DNA of 64,000 nucleotides from a virus. The translations under genes and the position numbers were made by a program. The stretch spans positions 7,904 through 71,903 of the IMG/VR virus record IMGVR_UViG_3300029893_000005; one strand, 5' to 3'. Below the pieces are notes generated by a model. The model saw nothing but the letters and a program-made list of their open reading frames with translations, searched no databases and had not been told where the DNA came from. Positions 14,250 through 58,827 of this stretch are shown here, in pieces. Position 1 is the stretch's first letter. Every line of letters begins with the position of its first letter.

Positions 14250-16604
14250 ATGAGGGGCGCATTCCGCGGGCCGCATCAACTCTGGGCTCTCTCGAACTTC
14301 ACGGGCGGGGAGACTTTCTTGCAGCGCGAGGATCGGGAAGCCGAGATCATGGTCAACTTCGAGTTGATGCGGGACGGCTACCTCACCAACCGCCTGGGTA
14401 CCACGCGGCTCAACGCCAATGATATCGGCGCCGAGATGATCGTGGGCATGGATTTGGTAGGGCAGACCAAGGTGCTGATCGCCAAGTCCGGCACCACCTT
14501 CTACTACGGAGACATCAACCCCACCATCACGTTCTCCTCGTTTACCGTGCCCAAGTCCCCAGGTAGCGATCCCGTGCGTTTCGCCAGCGCAGGCGATGCC
14601 CGAGCCTACTACATGGTGAACAAGAACTTCACCGGCGTAGTCAAGTGGGACGGAGCCAGTGGCTCCGCTTCGGTGGTTTCCGGCTCTCCTGTGGGGGAGT
14701 ACATCTCGCATTACAACAAAGTCATGTACGTTGCGGGGGACCCTGCGCATCCGAACCGCCTGTACCACAGCGACGCCGCTGCCTACGATTCGTGGCCGGC
14801 CCTCAATTACATCGACATCTCTCCGCGGCACGGCTTCATCACTGGCATGGTCAATCAGCCGGGCCAACTCATCGTTTTCTGTGAGCGGGCCATCCTGACG
14901 CTGCGGGGGCAGCCGCCTCTGCGCTACAACCTCGACGCGGTACATGAGTATGTCGGGTGCGACCATCCCGCCAGCCTCAGTTCCTTCGGCTCGGTCTCGG
15001 TGTTCCGCTTTCGTGGCAACCTGATTCAGTTATCCTCCACGGTGGAGGTTCTTTCCGATCAGGTCCGCGGGTACAGTCCGCACATCGCCGGGTCGACGGA
15101 CGTGAATCGTTCCTGGGGAGTGCTGACGCCGAACTACTACGTCCTGGCGCAGTCCACCAATCCGGGGAGTACGCGGTACGCTCCGTCTTCGACAAACCCG
15201 TTGCGGTTGTTCATCTACGACCGCACGCGGTACCAATGCTTCTACCGTTGGGCGTATCCGCCCGAATCCGCGGTAGGCCACTACGTCGGAGCGCAGGCGG
15301 TAGTGGCCGCTCCCGAGGGGCATGCCTTCTACATCGCAGGCGGGGACGGCAACGTGTATCGCCAGAGTCTGCGCCAGTGGTCCGCGGACTACAGTTACAC
15401 TACTTCTTCGGTATCTTTTACCAAGGACCGTGATATCTGGCTTGACGCATCCCAGGACGGTACCGGCCAGGGACCCACCCCGACTACGGAGGCGGCCTAT
15501 ACCGGGATTCTCGACGCTGACGAGTTGGTGGGGTTCACCATTACGACCGAGAATCGTTCGTGGTATGACCGCACCAACACGGGGCACGTCACCAGCGTGA
15601 CATTCAAGAAGACGGCCCCGAATGTCTGGGCCTACACCATCAACGGCATCGCCGCGGCCGGTGCCTGGGACGGCACCGTACCTTCGGCCAACGACACGGG
15701 TACCATCACCTTCACCGCGGGGGTGGTTTCGGATGTCAACGGCGGAGGAGCCGTGGCTTTCGACCTAGTGATCGGAGATGATACGGCGGGGGACCAGACG
15801 GTCAGCGTGGATTTCACGGCCCTGACACAGCCCAGCGCCGGTGGTACCGGCGACAGTACGGTGGACGCCGCGGATGCCACGTCCGCAGATGGGTCCGGCG
15901 CGATTTCGTTGGGGTTGACCACCGAGGCAGATTGGACCGGGGTGCTGGACTCCTCGGCCGCGGTGGCGGCTACCGCCGTGCAGTCGCTGGCTTGGTGGGA
16001 TCGCAGCGGAGTATCCCACCGTGTTGTCTTGACGTTGACCAAGACGGTGAACAACGCAGGGTTGGACGACACCTGGACCTACGCCATCACCGGGTTCACC
16101 GGGGGCGTATGGGTCGGCCTGACGTCGGGGGCGAGCACGGGTACGCTGACCTTCAACGCAGCGGGCGCCCAGACGTCTCCGGTCACTACCACCCTGGTGA
16201 TCGATGACGGGACCACGGGAGGGCAGAGCATCGACGTAGACTTGACCGGGATCACCAGCGTTGCGGGTGGCGGGGAAGACGTCATGGGGCAGTGGAGGTC
16301 GAGACGGCTGGATATGGGCAGTCCGTTAATCCAGAAGACCTATCGTCGCGTCCTGGTAGCGGGACAGGGTACGGCTACGCTGGCGACGCGGCAATATGGG
16401 GTTGACGGCACGCAGCGGCTCAACACCCTGTTCACCAACCAGAGCCTACCGCGGGACACGCGGCAGCCCGCCTTCAGCGGCGCCAGCGGATACCCCCGCT
16501 TCTCGGAAATCCAACTCGAACTGACCGGGACGGACTTGTGGGTGAAGGCCCTGGCCATGGAGTGGCGAGCCATTCGCTTGTCGGGAGGTAACGCACCGGC
16601 ATGA
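14250..16604 (+). CDS. Tail nozzle / tubular protein B-like with two inserted FlgE D2-like domains
   Basis: Beta-propeller-like body (NF...DG.L..R.G; YVAGD..HPNRLYHSD; ITGM...LIVF.E). The insertion at ~15483-16270 contains two flagellar-hook-like repeats. Confidence 0.7.
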   Translation: MRGAFRGPHQLWALSNFTGGETFLQREDREAEIMVNFELMRDGYLTNRLGTTRLNANDIGAEMIVGMDLVGQTKVLIAKSGTTFYYGDINPTITFSSFTVPKSPGSDPVRFASAGDARAYYMVNKNFTGVVKWDGASGSASVVSGSPVGEYISHYNKVMYVAGDPAHPNRLYHSDAAAYDSWPALNYIDISPRHGFITGMVNQPGQLIVFCERAILTLRGQPPLRYNLDAVHEYVGCDHPASLSSFGSVSVFRFRGNLIQLSSTVEVLSDQVRGYSPHIAGSTDVNRSWGVLTPNYYVLAQSTNPGSTRYAPSSTNPLRLFIYDRTRYQCFYRWAYPPESAVGHYVGAQAVVAAPEGHAFYIAGGDGNVYRQSLRQWSADYSYTTSSVSFTKDRDIWLDASQDGTGQGPTPTTEAAYTGILDADELVGFTITTENRSWYDRTNTGHVTSVTFKKTAPNVWAYTINGIAAAGAWDGTVPSANDTGTITFTAGVVSDVNGGGAVAFDLVIGDDTAGDQTVSVDFTALTQPSAGGTGDSTVDAADATSADGSGAISLGLTTEADWTGVLDSSAAVAATAVQSLAWWDRSGVSHRVVLTLTKTVNNAGLDDTWTYAITGFTGGVWVGLTSGASTGTLTFNAAGAQTSPVTTTLVIDDGTTGGQSIDVDLTGITSVAGGGEDVMGQWRSRRLDMGSPLIQKTYRRVLVAGQGTATLATRQYGVDGTQRLNTLFTNQSLPRDTRQPAFSGASGYPRFSEIQLELTGTDLWVKALAMEWRAIRLSGGNAPA

Positions 16605-43193: not shown

Positions 43194-43222
43194 ATTCTAC
43201 ACAATCTTGTGAAGATTGTCAA
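43194..43222 (-). promoter_or_regulatory. Sigma70 promoter with a 19-bp palindromic operator in the spacer
   Basis: TTGACA, 17 bp, TAGAAT; ACAATCTT-GTG-AAGATTGT at 43201-43219. Confidence 0.8.
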
Positions 43223-54100: not shown

Positions 54101-54367
54101 CTACGAGAGGTCCTTCACCTTCACGATGAACTTCTCGCCGAGGGCTTCGACGATGGCGTTGACCTGGGCGCGGGTCACCCGCTTGAACTCGGGTACCTCC
54201 AGGCTGGGCCGATAGACCCAGCGCCCGTCGTGGCTGTCGAGCGGCCACAGGAACTGGAGCACCGCTCCCTTCCGCCGCTTCAGGCTGCGCTCGGTGCAGA
54301 AGTCGACATACTGTCCCTGCCGCACCTCGATCTTCTGGCTGTTGATCTTCAGGATCGCCTGTCTCAC
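54101..54367 (-). CDS. Hypothetical protein
   Basis: GTG start overlapping the polymerase stop codon. Confidence 0.55.
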   Translation of the reverse strand: MRQAILKINSQKIEVRQGQYVDFCTERSLKRRKGAVLQFLWPLDSHDGRWVYRPSLEVPEFKRVTRAQVNAIVEALGEKFIVKVKDLS

Positions 54368-56898
54368 GCTGCTTCCTCCCTCATGGTGTCGAGCCACTCA
54401 CGGTAGCCCATGTGGTACACGCCCTGCTTGTCGGTGTATCCGTTGGGCCCCATCAACTCTCCGAGGCTGGGCCCCAGCATCCCCTCGACGTCGAGGGGCA
54501 CGGGGATCTTGAAGGGGTAGTCCATCTCCCGCATCAGGGCCTCCTGCTTCTCGGCCACGACCTCGGCCACGCCCAGCGGGATTTCCGCCCAGATAGCGTC
54601 GTGAACCACGTTGACCGGGATGAGGCGCTGGTTGTCGCGAAAGGTGCGGATCAACTTCCACAGGGTGCAGTCGCTGGCCGTGCTCTGCACGGGGAAGTTA
54701 GCCACCTGATTCTCAACGTGCCAGTCCGCCCGTCCCGTGAACTCGAAGGACCGCTGCCGCCCCCAGGGAGTGGTGATGAGGTCACCGCGGTAGGCCGCCT
54801 CGATCAGCGACTCCTGCCACGCCTTCAGTTCGGGGAACCGCCTGTGGAACTTCTTGTGGAAGTCCTCGGCTTCATGCAGCGACAACTTGTTGCGGCTGGC
54901 AAAGGTCTTCGGGGTCTCGCGATAGATCATCGCCAGCACTCCGACCTTCATCATTTCACGCTTCTTGGTGCCCTTCTTGCACTCTTCCAGCGGCAGCCCC
55001 CACAGGTCGGAGGCCATCACCTGATAGATGTCGCCGGCGAGGCAGGCCTTGATGAGGTTGCGGCTGTCGCACAGCCACGCCGCGATGCGCACCTCCACCT
55101 GGGCGAAGTCGAACTCGGCGAAGGCGTAGCCCGGCTGGGCTTGGAAGAGTTTACGGAAGGTGGGGTCCTTCTTCAGGTTCTGGATATTGGGGCGGGTGGA
55201 CGACAGGCGGCCGGTGACGGCGCCCTCCTCCCCGCTGTCCCCCTCACCGCGGTCCGTCTTGCACAACTGGTACTCGGTGTGGATCCGTCCGTCCACGATG
55301 TGGTGCTGCAACGGGGTGAGGAACTTGTTGCCGAGGTTGTCCCACTCCTTGAAGGCGACGAGGTACTTCCAGGCCTTGTGCCCGGCTGCCAGTTCGGGCA
55401 AGACCTCCTTCTTGTCGAGTTGCGGCTTGCCCGTCTTGGTGCGGCGGTGGACGATGGCGCCCGTGGTCTTGACCAGGGCGTACTGGCAGATGGGGGAGTT
55501 GGGGGAGAACACCCCGCCGAACCGCTTAGGCAGGTCCCGCTCCACCGCCTTCACCTCGGGCATCCGCCGCATCTTCTGCAGGATCTCCCCGGCCCATCGC
55601 TTGCTGGCGGTCTCCAGCGCACGGCAGTAGTGAGCGTCTGCCGGCAGCCCGTTGAGGGTGGTCTGCCCCAGCGCCACGATGGCGTCCCGCAGCAGCGTCT
55701 CGTAGACCGGCGGGGCCTGGACGTGCTTGATAGCATACTCCCGCAGCAGCATGGTGTTCCACACATCCCGCCCGTTCATGTCCGCTACCAGTTGAATGGG
55801 GACGTCCGCCAGCGAGGCGACGGGCTTCTGCTTGAGGGATCGCAGTCGCTCGTTCTCGGCCTCCACTGCTTCCCAGGCTGCGCCCTTCCAATTCTCGATG
55901 CCGAGCAGGTGATCGCACAGGGACTCCAGGCTGTTGCCGATCTTACCCAGGTCGAGCGAGGCGAAGGTCATCATGGTGTCGTGGACGCCCTTGAGCATCC
56001 AGTACAGGTTGGGCTCGAAGTAGTGGGCGAGGCAGGAGACGTCGACGTGGACGTTGTGCCCGTCGAGGATCTTGCCCTTCAGGCACGACAGGAACTCCCG
56101 CGTCATGAGCCGTTTCGGCACCACCCACACCGGCTCGTCCAGGCTGGTGCCGAAGCCGACGCACACGAAGGGTACCTTCGGCATCCAGTAGGTGAGCATG
56201 TCGGGGGCGTGCTCCTTCGCCTTCTTCGGGCTGCCCCACTCGCAGTCGAAGGTCACGACCTCGGCCCGCAGGATCTGCTTGCGCAGGGTGGCGAGGTCCT
56301 CCCCGCCGGTCACCAGCCGGATGTCAGGCTCCCGCTCCTGCACGCCCTCGATGATCTCGGCGGCGCGGGTGAAGATGCGGGTGTACTCCTCCGTGCAGTC
56401 GTTGCCCCGGATGTGGTACGACGGGTGGTAGGTGGTGAGCAGGTGGTAGGGGCCGGCGTTGTAGGTGCGCTTGCGGGCCTCGTTGACGGTTTTGGGGCCC
56501 TCCGGCCACAGCGCCTGCAGGGCGATAGCGCCCAGGGCGACCACGACCTTCGGCTTCAGCCGAGCGATGTCCCGGGCCAGATACTGCCGGCACAGAGCGA
56601 TCTGGTCTTCGTCGGGCTTGCCGGTACGGCAGCGCACGGCGTTGGACAGGGCGTAGGTCCCGCCCCAGGCGTCTAGCCAGGGCTGCAGCACGGCGCCGGG
56701 GTCGCCGCTGAAGGGGAAGCCCTCCTCGTCGTCCACCTCGTCGGGGGCTCCCCCCACCAGGAGGATGTCGACCTGGGTGCTGGTTGTGGAGATGGTGGGG
56801 ACCTTCCAAGTCGTACACCCGGCCTTCAGGCCGCAGGCGTCGCACAGCCGTGGATCGTACTCTCCCCGTCCAATGGGGTAGAAGGTGGGCTCGCTCAT
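54364..56898 (-). CDS. polA: Family A DNA polymerase with an N-terminal family-4 uracil-DNA-glycosylase-like domain and 3'-5' exonuclease
   Basis: UDG-like: CDACGL...C, NAVRC, TYHPSY. Exonuclease: FDCE, GHN...D. Polymerase: TGRLSSTRPNIQN, FDFAQVEVRI, R.MMKVGVLAMIY, NFPVQSTASD, VHDAIW. Confidence 0.9.
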   Translation of the reverse strand: MSEPTFYPIGRGEYDPRLCDACGLKAGCTTWKVPTISTTSTQVDILLVGGAPDEVDDEEGFPFSGDPGAVLQPWLDAWGGTYALSNAVRCRTGKPDEDQIALCRQYLARDIARLKPKVVVALGAIALQALWPEGPKTVNEARKRTYNAGPYHLLTTYHPSYHIRGNDCTEEYTRIFTRAAEIIEGVQEREPDIRLVTGGEDLATLRKQILRAEVVTFDCEWGSPKKAKEHAPDMLTYWMPKVPFVCVGFGTSLDEPVWVVPKRLMTREFLSCLKGKILDGHNVHVDVSCLAHYFEPNLYWMLKGVHDTMMTFASLDLGKIGNSLESLCDHLLGIENWKGAAWEAVEAENERLRSLKQKPVASLADVPIQLVADMNGRDVWNTMLLREYAIKHVQAPPVYETLLRDAIVALGQTTLNGLPADAHYCRALETASKRWAGEILQKMRRMPEVKAVERDLPKRFGGVFSPNSPICQYALVKTTGAIVHRRTKTGKPQLDKKEVLPELAAGHKAWKYLVAFKEWDNLGNKFLTPLQHHIVDGRIHTEYQLCKTDRGEGDSGEEGAVTGRLSSTRPNIQNLKKDPTFRKLFQAQPGYAFAEFDFAQVEVRIAAWLCDSRNLIKACLAGDIYQVMASDLWGLPLEECKKGTKKREMMKVGVLAMIYRETPKTFASRNKLSLHEAEDFHKKFHRRFPELKAWQESLIEAAYRGDLITTPWGRQRSFEFTGRADWHVENQVANFPVQSTASDCTLWKLIRTFRDNQRLIPVNVVHDAIWAEIPLGVAEVVAEKQEALMREMDYPFKIPVPLDVEGMLGPSLGELMGPNGYTDKQGVYHMGYREWLDTMREEAA

Positions 56899-56916
56899 TG
56901 CATCCTCCGGGAATAG

Positions 56917-57028
56917 TACACGACGAGACTGTGGAGTCGAACCACCACCCCGCCCTGGGGTATTGCAGGACTCGAACCTGCGTCAGGGTGCTACCCTGCC
57001 GGTAACCCGCCGTTATCCTCGTCGTGTA
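56917..57028 (-). ncRNA. Structured RNA module with two tRNA T-arm-like hairpins inside an 11-bp closing stem
   Basis: UACACGACGAG/CUCGUCGUGUA; GCAGG-UUCGAGU-CCUGC; GUGG-UUCGACU-CCAC; CAGGGU/ACCCUG. Confidence 0.65.
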
Positions 57029-57031
57029 TCT

Positions 57032-57163
57032 TGGTGGGGCGAGCAGGACTTGCACCTGCCTATTGGAGGGGAGGTAAGCAAGTGTTGCCGACTCTGCCTC
57101 CCGCCCGCTCCCCGACTCATCGCCGGACGGTTTCGGGCTCTGCCGCCTAGTGGTATCCGCCCC
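57032..57163 (-). ncRNA. 132-nt tRNA-like RNA with acceptor stem, T-arm and encoded ACCA end, but no canonical D or anticodon arm
   Basis: GGGGCGG/UCGCCCC 7-bp stem plus A-CCA; GCAGG-UGCAAGU-CCUGC; long arm GGGAGG...CCUCCC. Confidence 0.65.
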
Positions 57164-57166
57164 GGA

Positions 57167-57370
57167 GGTCCCGCAAGGCACGTCCTTGTTGCCCGCCCGA
57201 CGAGCCCGCCGAAGCGGCTTGAGGGCTCGTCAGGTGTCGGAACCCCACAGAGCGAATCGGAGTCGCCTCCCCGCAGTCCCGCCGCTCGTACCGCTCAAGC
57301 GGCGCTCGGCGGTACGAACTCGCTCGGGCCGGGGCGTATGTTCAGTAGCCCGGTCCGAACTTGCGGGACC
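57167..57370 (-). ncRNA. ~205-nt multibranch structured RNA module
   Basis: Closing stem GGUCCCGCAAG/CUUGCGGGACC; internal stems GUUCGUACCGC/GCGGUACGAGC and UGACGAGCCC/GGGCUCGUCG; GNRA and UUCG tetraloops. Confidence 0.65.
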
Positions 57371-57385
57371 ACGGGAGGGCGAACG

Positions 57386-58204
57386 CTAGTCGTCGTCCTC
57401 CTCGGTGACGGAGAACAGGCCTTCCTTGGCGTCGAGGATGCGGATGCCGTTCTCCTCCAGGAGCCCCTGCACCCGGGACGGGGTGGCCACGTCCGGGCCG
57501 AACTTGTCCTGCACGAGGTCCACCACCGACTTCAGGCCGTACTTCTTGCCCGGCCTGAGTTTCCGGTAGAGGGTAGCCACGTACTTGGTGAGCGCCGCCC
57601 GCTGCTCCTCCGTCAGCCCCGACTTCTTGGCGGAGGTCTCCTCGGACTTCTTGGCCGCGGCCTCGGCGTCACCCGACTTCGGCGGAGCCGGCTCGGGGGG
57701 CAGGGCGCCCTCCAGGTAGGTGTGCAGACGGCTGACCTGCTGCCCCACCTTCTCGATGGCGGTCTCCAGTTCGCCCAGCCGCCCCTCGATCTTGGCGATC
57801 TGATCGCTGGTCACGGCCGACACCGCTTTCGGGACCTTCGTCTCCAGCCCCTTCAGCGCCTCGAACACCGGCCCCAGGTCGACCTCGGCGGGCGCCGCCT
57901 TCTCGGCCTTCGCCTTCTTCTCGGGCAGCGGCTCGGACTTGACGCCCTTCTTGGGGGCGCTGCGCAGGGCGTCCTCGACGAACTCCTGCGGCAGGTTCAT
58001 GTCCTCGTCGTCCTCCTCGACGTCGGGGATCTCGTCCACGTCGTCGACGTCCGGAACTTCGTCCTCGTCGCCGTCATCGTCGTCGTCCAGCCCGTCGTCG
58101 TCGTCGTCCAGCCCGTCGTCGATGACCGGGGCGGGCGCCGCCTTCGGCTTGTTCTTGCTGCCCTTCGGGCGGCCCGGACCCTTCTTCGTTGCCGTCACTC
58201 CCAT
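57386..58204 (-). CDS. AT-hook + long acidic tract protein with coiled coil and a C-terminal helical domain
   Basis: KKGPGRPKGSKNK AT-hook followed by an Asp/Glu tract; ATG at 58204 with GGAGG SD. Confidence 0.7.
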   Translation of the reverse strand: MGVTATKKGPGRPKGSKNKPKAAPAPVIDDGLDDDDDGLDDDDDGDEDEVPDVDDVDEIPDVEEDDEDMNLPQEFVEDALRSAPKKGVKSEPLPEKKAKAEKAAPAEVDLGPVFEALKGLETKVPKAVSAVTSDQIAKIEGRLGELETAIEKVGQQVSRLHTYLEGALPPEPAPPKSGDAEAAAKKSEETSAKKSGLTEEQRAALTKYVATLYRKLRPGKKYGLKSVVDLVQDKFGPDVATPSRVQGLLEENGIRILDAKEGLFSVTEEDDD

Positions 58205-58244
58205 GTGCTTTCCTCCTGGAGTTGGGATATTCGCTCGCTCACCC

Positions 58245-58273
58245 ATCCTAGCAAATCTTGTGAAGATTGTCTA
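58245..58273 (-). promoter_or_regulatory. Sigma70-type promoter with the operator in the spacer
   Basis: TAGACA, 17 bp, TAGGAT; ATCTTGTGAAGAT at 58255-58267. Confidence 0.7.
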
Positions 58274-58504
58274 GGGGTTAGTCGAGGGAATTTCTTTCGT
58301 TTGCGTGATACCTCCCCGATTTTTCTGGTCAACCAGGGAGTCCATCACCATTCGCTGCATCGCCGACATCGCCTGCGGCATCTCCCACCCAAGAAACTTT
58401 CGGTGGGCCACCTTCCGCCCTTCGGGCCCGTCCTCGATCTCGTAGGTGTCGAGGCGGAAGGAACCGTCGTCGCACTGGTAGAGGTGGCCGCGGAACTTCT
58501 TCAT
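58271..58504 (-). CDS. Small hypothetical protein
   Basis: 77-aa ORF; ATGA overlap. Confidence 0.55.
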   Translation of the reverse strand: MKKFRGHLYQCDDGSFRLDTYEIEDGPEGRKVAHRKFLGWEMPQAMSAMQRMVMDSLVDQKNRGGITQTKEIPSTNP

Positions 58505-58827
58505 CCCGAGTACCGCTCCCGCCTCCGGCGCTCGGTGCCGGGCTGTGCCTTCAGCCAGTCAGCGGAGGGGAGGGCGGGGCGACGGACCCCCTCCTGCTTG
58601 TCGCTGTCCTCCCGCATCATGCGGTCGATGAGGTAACGCAGGACGTGGATAGGCTTGACTGCCCGTCCCGTAAGGTCCCGTTCTGCCATCTCCCCCGCTT
58701 TGCGCGCCAGCCACGCGAACTGCTCCTTCGTAAAGGTGGCCCAGATACGATGCTCGTAGATCGTCCCACGAGCCACCGCGTCCTCCGGGAAGTCCTTCCA
58801 GGTGGCGAGGTCGTGCTTACCCGGCAT
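58501..58827 (-). CDS. Hypothetical protein, possibly RHH-like
   Basis: RIWATFTKEQFAWL...IHVLRYLIDRMM pattern. Confidence 0.45.
   Translation of the reverse strand: MPGKHDLATWKDFPEDAVARGTIYEHRIWATFTKEQFAWLARKAGEMAERDLTGRAVKPIHVLRYLIDRMMREDSDKQEGVRRPALPSADWLKAQPGTERRRRERYSG

Follow-up and report, generated by a model that had tools for sequence, protein, structure and literature searches.

Two tandem Y-shaped RNA domains predicted in the spacer before the DNA polymerase gene of an uncultivated groundwater phage

Introduction

RNase III cuts the polycistronic early transcript of phage T7 at five sites, and the idealized substrate of the Escherichia coli enzyme is 22 bp long, with a minimum of about 11 bp (PMC3867540). 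Cleavage of processing stems of this kind, in T7 and in rRNA operons, separates messages and leaves behind a protective hairpin at the 3' end (PMC3867540). In T4-type phages, short conserved stem-loop cassettes called PeSLs lie in the spacers and mediate modular shuffling (Arbiol et al. 2010, PMC2839356), which leaves a conserved structure-forming sequence around the swapped content (PMC2839356). The pRNA of phi29 (RF00044), which lies at the genome end, is a phage three-way junction of ~120 nt with a long helix formed by its 5' and 3' ends and two hairpin arms. T4 also has two orphan structured RNAs of ~100-140 nt beside its tRNA cluster, species 1 (rnaC) and species 2 (rnaD), which tRNA-processing enzymes cut out of a transcript shared with tRNA-type elements, and whose function is unknown.

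Spacers in phage operons are usually treated as promoters, terminators, or junk. The DNA analyzed here (the window) is a 64-kb stretch of the IMG/VR virus record IMGVR_UViG_3300029893_000005, a 79.5-kb record (~74% complete, ~65% GC) of an uncultivated phage from groundwater, and its polymerase spacer holds the most stable predicted fold of the genome. The fold consists of two domains, D1 and D2. Like the T7 signals and the processing stems of rRNA operons, these have helices of about two turns that lie between phage cistrons or close a branched interior, but each T7 signal is one irregular hairpin of ~60 nt that contains an internal loop, whereas D1 and D2 are predicted three-way junctions of 100-120 nt that are putatively cleaved. 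The element resembles the PeSLs in that the D1 helix is found in two contexts and that the spacers of two relatives, L038 and L049, differ by a swap; however, PeSLs have a strong promoter and a terminator stem-loop and occur many times per genome, whereas the element has no promoter or U-tract and occupies one locus, and what is swapped is a non-coding interior rather than genes. The general layout of phi29 pRNA, with its long end-to-end helix and two arms, is also that of D1 and D2, but the element has no Rfam match, shows no complementary loop pair for ring formation, and consists of two tandem copies in a replication operon. With the T4 species 1 and 2 RNAs it shares no sequence or covariance-model similarity, and unlike them it has non-decoding tRNA look-alikes as neighbors and a polA leader as its setting. 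The element is closest in behavior to the T7 RNase III signals and the PeSL cassettes but belongs to neither; it is a predicted structured phage RNA, orphan and lineage-specific, and its twin-Y, cassette-like organization is unusual.

Results

Genomic setting of the spacer

The structured stretch sits within an untranslated spacer of 487 nt (56899-57385, minus strand), with the gene for an AT-hook-like protein upstream and polA downstream. The surrounding features are as follows.

57386..58246, minus strand: upstream gene for an AT-hook-like protein, 286 aa, no Pfam family
54364..56898, minus strand: downstream gene polA, a fusion of a UDG domain with a family A DNA polymerase, 844 aa (Pfam PF03167 and PF00476), ATG at 56898
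56904..56911, minus strand: ribosome-binding site region of polA, CCCGGAGG, from the sequence
58245..58273, minus strand: sigma-70-like promoter match before the AT-hook gene, 9/12 matches plus an extended -10

The surrounding minus-strand arm is a replication/recombination module (SNF2 helicase, RecA, DnaB, Dam, Toprim, ThyX, SbcCD-like proteins, and RusA), and none of the 26 neighboring proteins scanned is an RNA-processing enzyme. No conserved ORF was found in the spacer, which is accordingly non-coding, and directly downstream of D2, before polA, it contains non-decoding tRNA look-alike modules. The match at 58245..58273 is the sole promoter-like site near the element, and no promoter-like or terminator-like sites were found inside the spacer (the terminator scan covered both strands of 56500-58700). 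A preliminary description of this DNA, made from its letters alone, had placed the structured RNA in the same operator-controlled transcript as the AT-hook gene. The position of the spacer downstream of the lone promoter-like site, with no promoter or terminator of its own, fits such co-transcription but does not show it. A 27-nt motif containing ATCTTGTGAAGATTGTC occurs in two copies that are 85% identical, at 43194-43220 and 58245-58271 of the window; the second copy overlaps the promoter-like site, and the motif is probably what had been called the operator.

Strength and strand preference of the fold

The minus strand of 57167-57370, the piece originally singled out, folds with an MFE of -122.5 kcal/mol (z -5.85), which none of 200 dinucleotide shuffles equaled, and the plus strand with an MFE of -104.8 kcal/mol (z -3.56). 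A separate shuffle set gave z-scores of -7.0 for the same piece and -7.8 for 57152-57383 on the minus strand, and the entire spacer (56899-57385, minus) has an MFE of -257.5 kcal/mol and a z-score of -6.38. After regression on GC, 57152-57383 stood out at -5.5 sd from 1110 windows (230 nt each) of the same genome, with the next at -3.2, a contrast that is somewhat inflated because these limits were picked after the fold was known. By these predictions the structure is real and exceptional, and no other piece of the 64-kb window is as strongly structured. The claim of a non-coding, strongly structured RNA is thus borne out, with z-scores far beyond those of shuffles.

Over 57152-57383 the sense (minus) strand reaches -147.0 kcal/mol versus -117.3 kcal/mol for the antisense strand, an advantage of 30 kcal/mol, and the sense fold contains 13 G.U pairs versus 2 A.C single mismatches. 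Because decaying DNA palindromes should yield G.U and A.C about equally, this ratio favors selection on the minus-strand transcript, the strand to which G-U pairs had already pointed in the preliminary description. The G.U count is to be read as supporting evidence and not as proof, since MFE folding itself prefers such pairs.

Two domains in place of one junction

All the helices named at the outset are present at their minus-strand places: the 11-bp closing helix of GGUCCCGCAAG (57370-57360) with CUUGCGGGACC (57177-57167), also seen as a self-match; the CCGGG/CCCGG hairpin with its UUCGG/CCGAG extension; the 11-bp GUUCGUACCGC/GCGGUACGAGC; GGAG-GCGA-CUCC; and UGACGAGCCC/GGGCUCGUCG, capped by CCGC-UUCG-GCGG. 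Their assembly into a single multibranch RNA of ~205 nt closed by the 11-bp helix, however, is lost once the natural flanks are added. When the 204 nt are folded alone, this helix has a pair probability of 0.9-1.0, but in contexts of 351, 487, and 801 nt this value falls to a mean of 0.0; with 15 nt added upstream and 17 nt downstream (57150-57385) the MFE is -147.3 kcal/mol, and forcing the helix raises it to -134.1, at a cost of 13 kcal/mol. The predicted structure is instead two tandem Y-shaped three-way junctions, each with a closing helix of ~20 bp and two hairpin arms, and with limits (57382/57263 and 57257/57155) unlike those first given. The parts of the two domains are listed below.

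57263..57382, minus strand: domain D1, 120 nt; MFE -81.5 kcal/mol, z -7.07, 0/200 shuffles as good
57363..57382, minus strand: 5' strand of the D1 closing helix (UCGCC, C, UCCCGUGGUCCCGC), paired with 57263-57282
57263..57282, minus strand: 3' strand of the D1 closing helix (GCGGGACUGCGGGG, A, GGCGA), from the helix list and pair probabilities
57322..57360, minus strand: arm P2 of D1, GUUCGG/CCGAGC plus CCGGG/CCCGG, with a 12-15 nt loop starting CUA
57284..57319, minus strand: arm P3 of D1, the 11-bp GUUCGUACCGC/GCGGUACGAGC plus CGAGC/GCUUG, from the predicted fold
57258..57262, minus strand: linker CUCCG between D1 and D2, unpaired in the local fold
57155..57257, minus strand: domain D2, 103 nt; MFE -63.7 kcal/mol, z -4.81, 0/200 shuffles as good
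57196..57234, minus strand: arm P5 of D2, CCUGACGAGCCC/GGGCUCGUCGGG with the cap GCCG-CUU-CGGC, the same as the UUCG-capped helix named above
57176..57194, minus strand: arm P6 of D2, GGGCA/UGCCU with a purine-rich loop, from the predicted fold
57161..57168, minus strand: CCUCCGGG in the 3' strand of the D2 closing helix, an exact complement of the polA ribosome-binding site

D1 begins 3 nt past the stop codon of the AT-hook gene. Its closing helix has 19 bp, 5 and 14 on either side of a single C.A mismatch, includes three G.U pairs, and has a pair probability of 0.92-0.98 in three sequence contexts. That of D2, formed by AUUCGCUCUG/CGGGGCGGAU and GGGGUUCCG/CGGGACCUC, comprises 10 + 9 + 2 bp (21 bp) with two 1-nt bulges and has a pair probability of 0.99-1.0. 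The 5' closing strand of D1 includes GGUCCCGC, which had previously been paired with 57167-57174, and the GGAG-GCGA-CUCC hairpin is lost from the flanked fold because its 5' half forms the 3' strand of the D1 closing helix. The 3' closing strands of D1 and D2 are alike (GCGGGA-CUGCGGGGAGG and GCGGGACCUCCGGGGCGG, respectively; 2 of 2000 shuffles score as high), so that the 5' strand of D1 can pair with either, and this is why the 11-bp helix exists. The similarity between the domains is significant for these 3' strands only, and a D1 covariance model does not recover D2; on the basis of this short similarity, D1 and D2 are probably paralogous. The basal 10 bp of P2 and P3 share the form GUUCG[G/U]ACCG ... 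CGG[C/U][C/A]CGAGC and differ by one compensatory swap of G-C to U-A and one repair of A.C to A-U; the two arms are paralogues. In the part of the gap that lies upstream of the stem of the tRNA-like module itself, no 8-nt complement of 56904-56911 other than CCUCCGGG occurs, and in the MFE structure of the whole gap the linker CUCCG, too, is paired with the polA ribosome-binding site.

Comparison with relatives

The clade is tiny, and searches with PolA and the AT-hook protein gave four other distinct gaps (L003, L002, L038, and L049). The metagenome scan yielded L036, L037, and L038, the first two being identical to L002 and L003, and the protein searches with the AT-hook protein and the N-terminus of PolA added L049 alone. 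PolA by itself found no related loci in IMG/VR, and with an alignment only relatives of 28% identity or less were found. The loci compared, including one that lacks the spacer, are as follows.

L003 (= L037): PolA 73% identity; gap before polA 281 nt
L002 (= L036): PolA 75% identity; gap before polA about 209-420 nt
L038: PolA ~60% identity; gap before polA 513 nt
L049: partial contig
L004: PolA 37% identity; no spacer before polA

The spacer of the window is 206 nt longer than that of L003, in which an AT-hook orthologue of 43% identity holds the equivalent position. The gaps of the relatives barely align with that of the window and fold no better than shuffles (z -0.3 to -2.0), the closing helices in the closest relatives are shorter (6-12 bp), and covariance models of the element do not match these gaps. 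D1 and D2 as such are thus lineage-specific. The inner P2 hairpin, with a loop that starts CUA or UA, is found in the syntenic gap of all five sequences (the window, L003, L002, L038, and L049). In the relatives both partners differ in two of its four stem pairs, and of the cells in its alignment 94% are paired versus 29-67% when the partner strand is slid, although these values come from a small sample and are reached by 28-66 of 500 shuffles. The preliminary description had rested its case on exceptional shuffle z-scores and on homologs that keep the pairings; the z-scores are indeed exceptional, but the closest relatives keep only the one hairpin, P2.

The spacer flanks of L038 and L049, both from groundwater phages that are close relatives of each other, are ~95% identical and enclose a middle of ~120 nt (about 105-130 nt; L038:725-853 and L049:1337-1442) that is unrelated between the two and is closed in each by a helix of its own. 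This is a cassette replacement within the spacer. Two other hairpins are shared by L003, L038, and L049 (L003:4865-4900, L038:~845-890, and L049:1440-1480). One, CCCUC-GCAA-GAGGG, is invariant, and in the other, CCAAUA..ACA-GCG-UGU..UUGG, a C-G pair of L003 is replaced by A-U in L038 and L049. By eye, arm P6 may be at most a degenerate counterpart of this conserved CCAAUA...UUGG hairpin. A small called ORF lies between the spacer and polA in L002 (242-463, 73 aa) and L038 (1082-1291, 69 aa); the two are not visibly similar, and the window and L003 have no such ORF before polA.

Metagenome contigs and a second context for D1

Logan contigs of four runs were compared with the window. Contigs of runs X3 and X5 that span the stretch show almost no variation in the phage, and X6 agrees over the part that it covers; the single difference among these contigs is one coding SNP at 57555, and the stretch is identical across at least three subsurface/rock metagenome studies. 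A separate contig of 1339 nt from X3, with a depth of 8, matches the window only at 57356-57385 (one mismatch) and 57264-57289 (exact). Where the window has 66 nt between these matches, the contig has 65 other letters, and on either side it continues into unrelated sequence of lower GC. The matched pieces correspond to both strands of the D1 closing helix together with the bases of P2 and P3, and the homology begins right after the window's AT-hook stop codon and stops at the last pairs of D1. Because the match is limited to the closing-helix strands, the ends of D1 can be taken as real module boundaries, and D1 itself emerges as a discrete module whose closing helix is conserved and whose interior can be replaced. 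The 3' strand of the 11-bp helix is missing from this contig. On the sense strand, its D1-type helix leads into GCAUUUUUGG, a U-run of the kind typically seen at intrinsic terminators. In X8, a run from a rock metagenome, contigs identical to the flanking genes end at 56702 and 57355, both edges of the spacer region, which could be due to low coverage or to a strain whose spacer differs.

Searches for known families and further copies

Rfam 15 gave no matches in the whole window at gathering thresholds, and with E up to 10 over 56700-57600 the only match across 57155-57382 was a 12.9-bit chance match to a human lncRNA model; nothing relevant was found in L002, L038, or L049. The classes for which the result was negative include RNase P, 6S, SRP, tmRNA, Y RNA/YrlA, pRNA, GOLLD/ROOL/HEARO, riboswitches, and self-cleaving ribozymes. 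The initial impression that RNase P, SRP, 6S, and ribozyme cores are missing therefore extends to every family searched. No match was obtained when the whole gap was compared by BLASTN with 50,697 phage records, and exact-motif scans of IMG/VR, with two blocks conserved in the relatives and a 26-mer of D1, returned nothing. A 20-mer scan of GTDB genomes gave nine chance matches in unrelated high-GC genomes, none with the partner strand. A gapped pattern of the closing helix had four matches in IMG/VR, of which the one inspected (L051) lies inside an ORF of 675 aa with a fold z-score of +0.4, and was put down to chance. A covariance model of the whole element (R1), run on 21 sources, and one of D1 (R2), run on 13, detected no further copy there or in the full virus record. 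The 10-mer GCTCGTACCG occurs five times in the window, as do 103 other 10-mers, in unrelated contexts, and is thus not enriched.

Several identities were considered and rejected. ARAGORN finds no tRNA or tmRNA gene in the window with default settings, and with lowered thresholds and introns its calls are mutually overlapping, contradictory, and implausible. An intrinsic terminator would require a U-run, which is absent: D1 is followed by CUCCGAUUCGC and D2 by ACCACUAGG. A mobile palindrome of the MITE or REP type does not agree with the occurrence of the element at one locus only across the 79-kb record and all fetched loci, or with the strand-asymmetric G.U pairs. A retron msr-msd was set aside because the reverse transcriptase family PF00078 is absent from the phage record, where positive controls worked, and because the neighbors are the AT-hook gene and polA. 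A Y RNA or YrlA acting with Ro60 was rejected since it has no Rfam match and the TROVE domain of a Ro60-type partner (PF05731) is absent from the phage record. The spacer has no repeats and no promoter-like or terminator-like site, so that only its shuffling behavior is similar to that of a PeSL-type cassette. For a phi29-type pRNA, the loops CUACUGAACAUACG, GCC, CUU, and ACAAGGACG contain, by inspection, no mutually complementary 4-mers, and RF00044 is not matched. The words CUGACGAG and CGAAAC do not fit the layout of a hammerhead, again by inspection.

Discussion

We tentatively propose, with a probability of roughly 0.4, that the element is a co-transcribed intercistronic processing and stability element with helices of RNase III length and swappable cassettes. 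The predicted closing helices of D1 and D2, 20-21 positions long, fall within the range of RNase III substrates (about 20-22 bp, with a minimum of about 11 bp). The spacer would be transcribed along with the flanking genes of the replication operon and would act in cis. RNase III would cut both closing helices, the length of which matches, and enzymes of the RNase P/Z type would cut at the downstream tRNA-like modules; together these cuts would separate the AT-hook message from the polA message, leave the upstream message with a stable and protective 3'-terminal structure, and set the Y-shaped cores free. In their distribution, D1 and D2 behave as exchangeable cassettes in which the closing helix is kept and the interior is free to vary. 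The analysis shows the fold with its strand bias, where the domains begin and end, that no family matches, and this cassette-like distribution; transcription, cleavage, and any effect on polA expression are what we infer from the predicted structure and its setting. The main weakness of this reading is that the relatives lack helices of RNase III length, so that such a helix is not a conserved requirement of the spacer; L004 even does without a spacer before polA, and the insignificant folds of the relatives' gaps also speak against a role in processing. If D1 and D2 are processing and stability elements, they would offer a simple, testable case of how the level of the polymerase message is set in uncultivated high-GC phages, and in any event later work can start from a corrected structure of two domains with defined ends rather than one junction of 204 nt.

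D1 and D2 could instead be small, stable, trans-acting RNAs of ~100-120 nt that are released from the operon transcript, much as species 1 and 2 are from the tRNA cluster of T4, and serve as decoy, protein scaffold, or antisense regulator, which we regard as unlikely. Extremely stable, closed folds with defined ends and tRNA-like modules directly downstream agree with such a role, and the recurrence of the closing helix in a second genomic context is as expected of a self-contained RNA gene, but the domains have no promoter or terminator of their own and no evident partner protein, and they are absent from the nearest relatives. The 5' strand of D1 also holds a 17-nt exact complement to the tail-nozzle mRNA (BLAST E 0.003). 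The sequence GCCCUCCCGUGGUCCCG at 57364-57380 (minus) is identical to the minus strand at 16208-16224, within a plus-strand ORF for a 784-aa tail (nozzle-like) protein, and the RNA would therefore be perfectly complementary to that late mRNA. The segment is, however, buried in the closing helix, and the complementarity could be chance or an antisense target.

It is rather unlikely that D1, D2, and the element of the X3 contig represent an undescribed family of self-contained structured-RNA cassettes that subsurface phages exchange horizontally and that are stacked here in the leader of a polymerase gene. Such a family may be defined by a conserved helix of ~20 bp (5' UUCGC..GUGGNYCCG and 3' GCGGGAC..CGGGG..GG) with a replaceable two-arm interior, and the helix may be a recognition site for a nuclease or for recombination, or the mark of trans-acting small RNAs such as a decoy in defense or a primer of replication. 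Either as exchangeable RNA cassettes or as small RNAs set free from the transcript, the domains would form a new class of mobile non-coding module.

Regulation of polA in cis, either by an attenuator or terminator that lacks a U-tract and closely follows the AT-hook stop codon, or through masking of the ribosome-binding site over a long range, seems distinctly unlikely to us. The start of D1 only 3 nt past the stop codon and the U-run GCAUUUUUGG after the D1-type helix of the X3 contig would suit an attenuator, but in the window no U-tract follows D1 or D2 and the terminator scan is empty, and since no promoter follows the element, expression of polA needs read-through. Masking would draw on CCUCCGGG, the complement of the polA ribosome-binding site, and on the linker CUCCG, which pairs there in the whole-gap MFE structure; this anti-SD segment is, however, locked in the D2 closing helix with a probability of 0.99, and an 8-nt complement is only weakly improbable in a GC-rich spacer of 487 nt.

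An element acting at the DNA level, with the duplicated palindromes as a recombination hot spot, cruciform, origin element, or mobile insertion and the RNA fold as a by-product, is improbable. The reverse strand also folds, with a z-score of -3.6, and matches the D1 model at 42.7 bits, but the 13 G.U versus 2 A.C and the sense advantage of 30 kcal/mol are unexpected for DNA palindromes. Long, nearly perfect helices, duplicated hairpin stems, the 206 nt by which the gap exceeds that of L003, modules that are swapped between relatives and present in a second context, and the location within a replication gene cluster would all be natural for such an element. Neither the 79-kb record nor any fetched locus contains a second copy, though, the 10-mer half-site is not enriched elsewhere, and no transposase or reverse transcriptase was found.

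That the hairpins have no function and represent a neutral, recent expansion in a permissive spacer is very improbable: the spacer does vary from 0 to about 513 nt among relatives, is mostly unalignable, and is not significantly structured in their versions, but the sequence is identical in at least three subsurface/rock studies despite a nearby coding SNP, the compensatory changes, like the strand-specific bias toward G.U, speak for selection, and the fold is the most extreme in the genome. Least probable is a single five-way-junction RNA of ~204 nt closed by 57360-57370/57167-57177, since the helix that forms at 0.9-1.0 in the isolated piece (z -5.9) drops to 0.0 in all contexts with natural flanks and is 13 kcal/mol less stable, the D1 helix forms first in transcription, and the X3 contig keeps the D1 partner strand without the 3' strand of that helix.

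The tRNA look-alikes, at which the processing and stability element would undergo its second type of cleavage, invite two further remarks. In the window, GGGGCGG (within 57155-57164) is engaged in the D2 closing helix with a predicted probability of 0.99, which weakens the proposed closure of the tRNA-like module at 57032-57163, where these letters would be the 5' strand of the acceptor stem. L038 carries a tRNA-like module of its own before polA (~990-1055), with the T-arm GAGGGUUCGAACCCCUC and the 3' end GCCGGCGCCA, so that tRNA look-alikes in this spacer recur across the clade.
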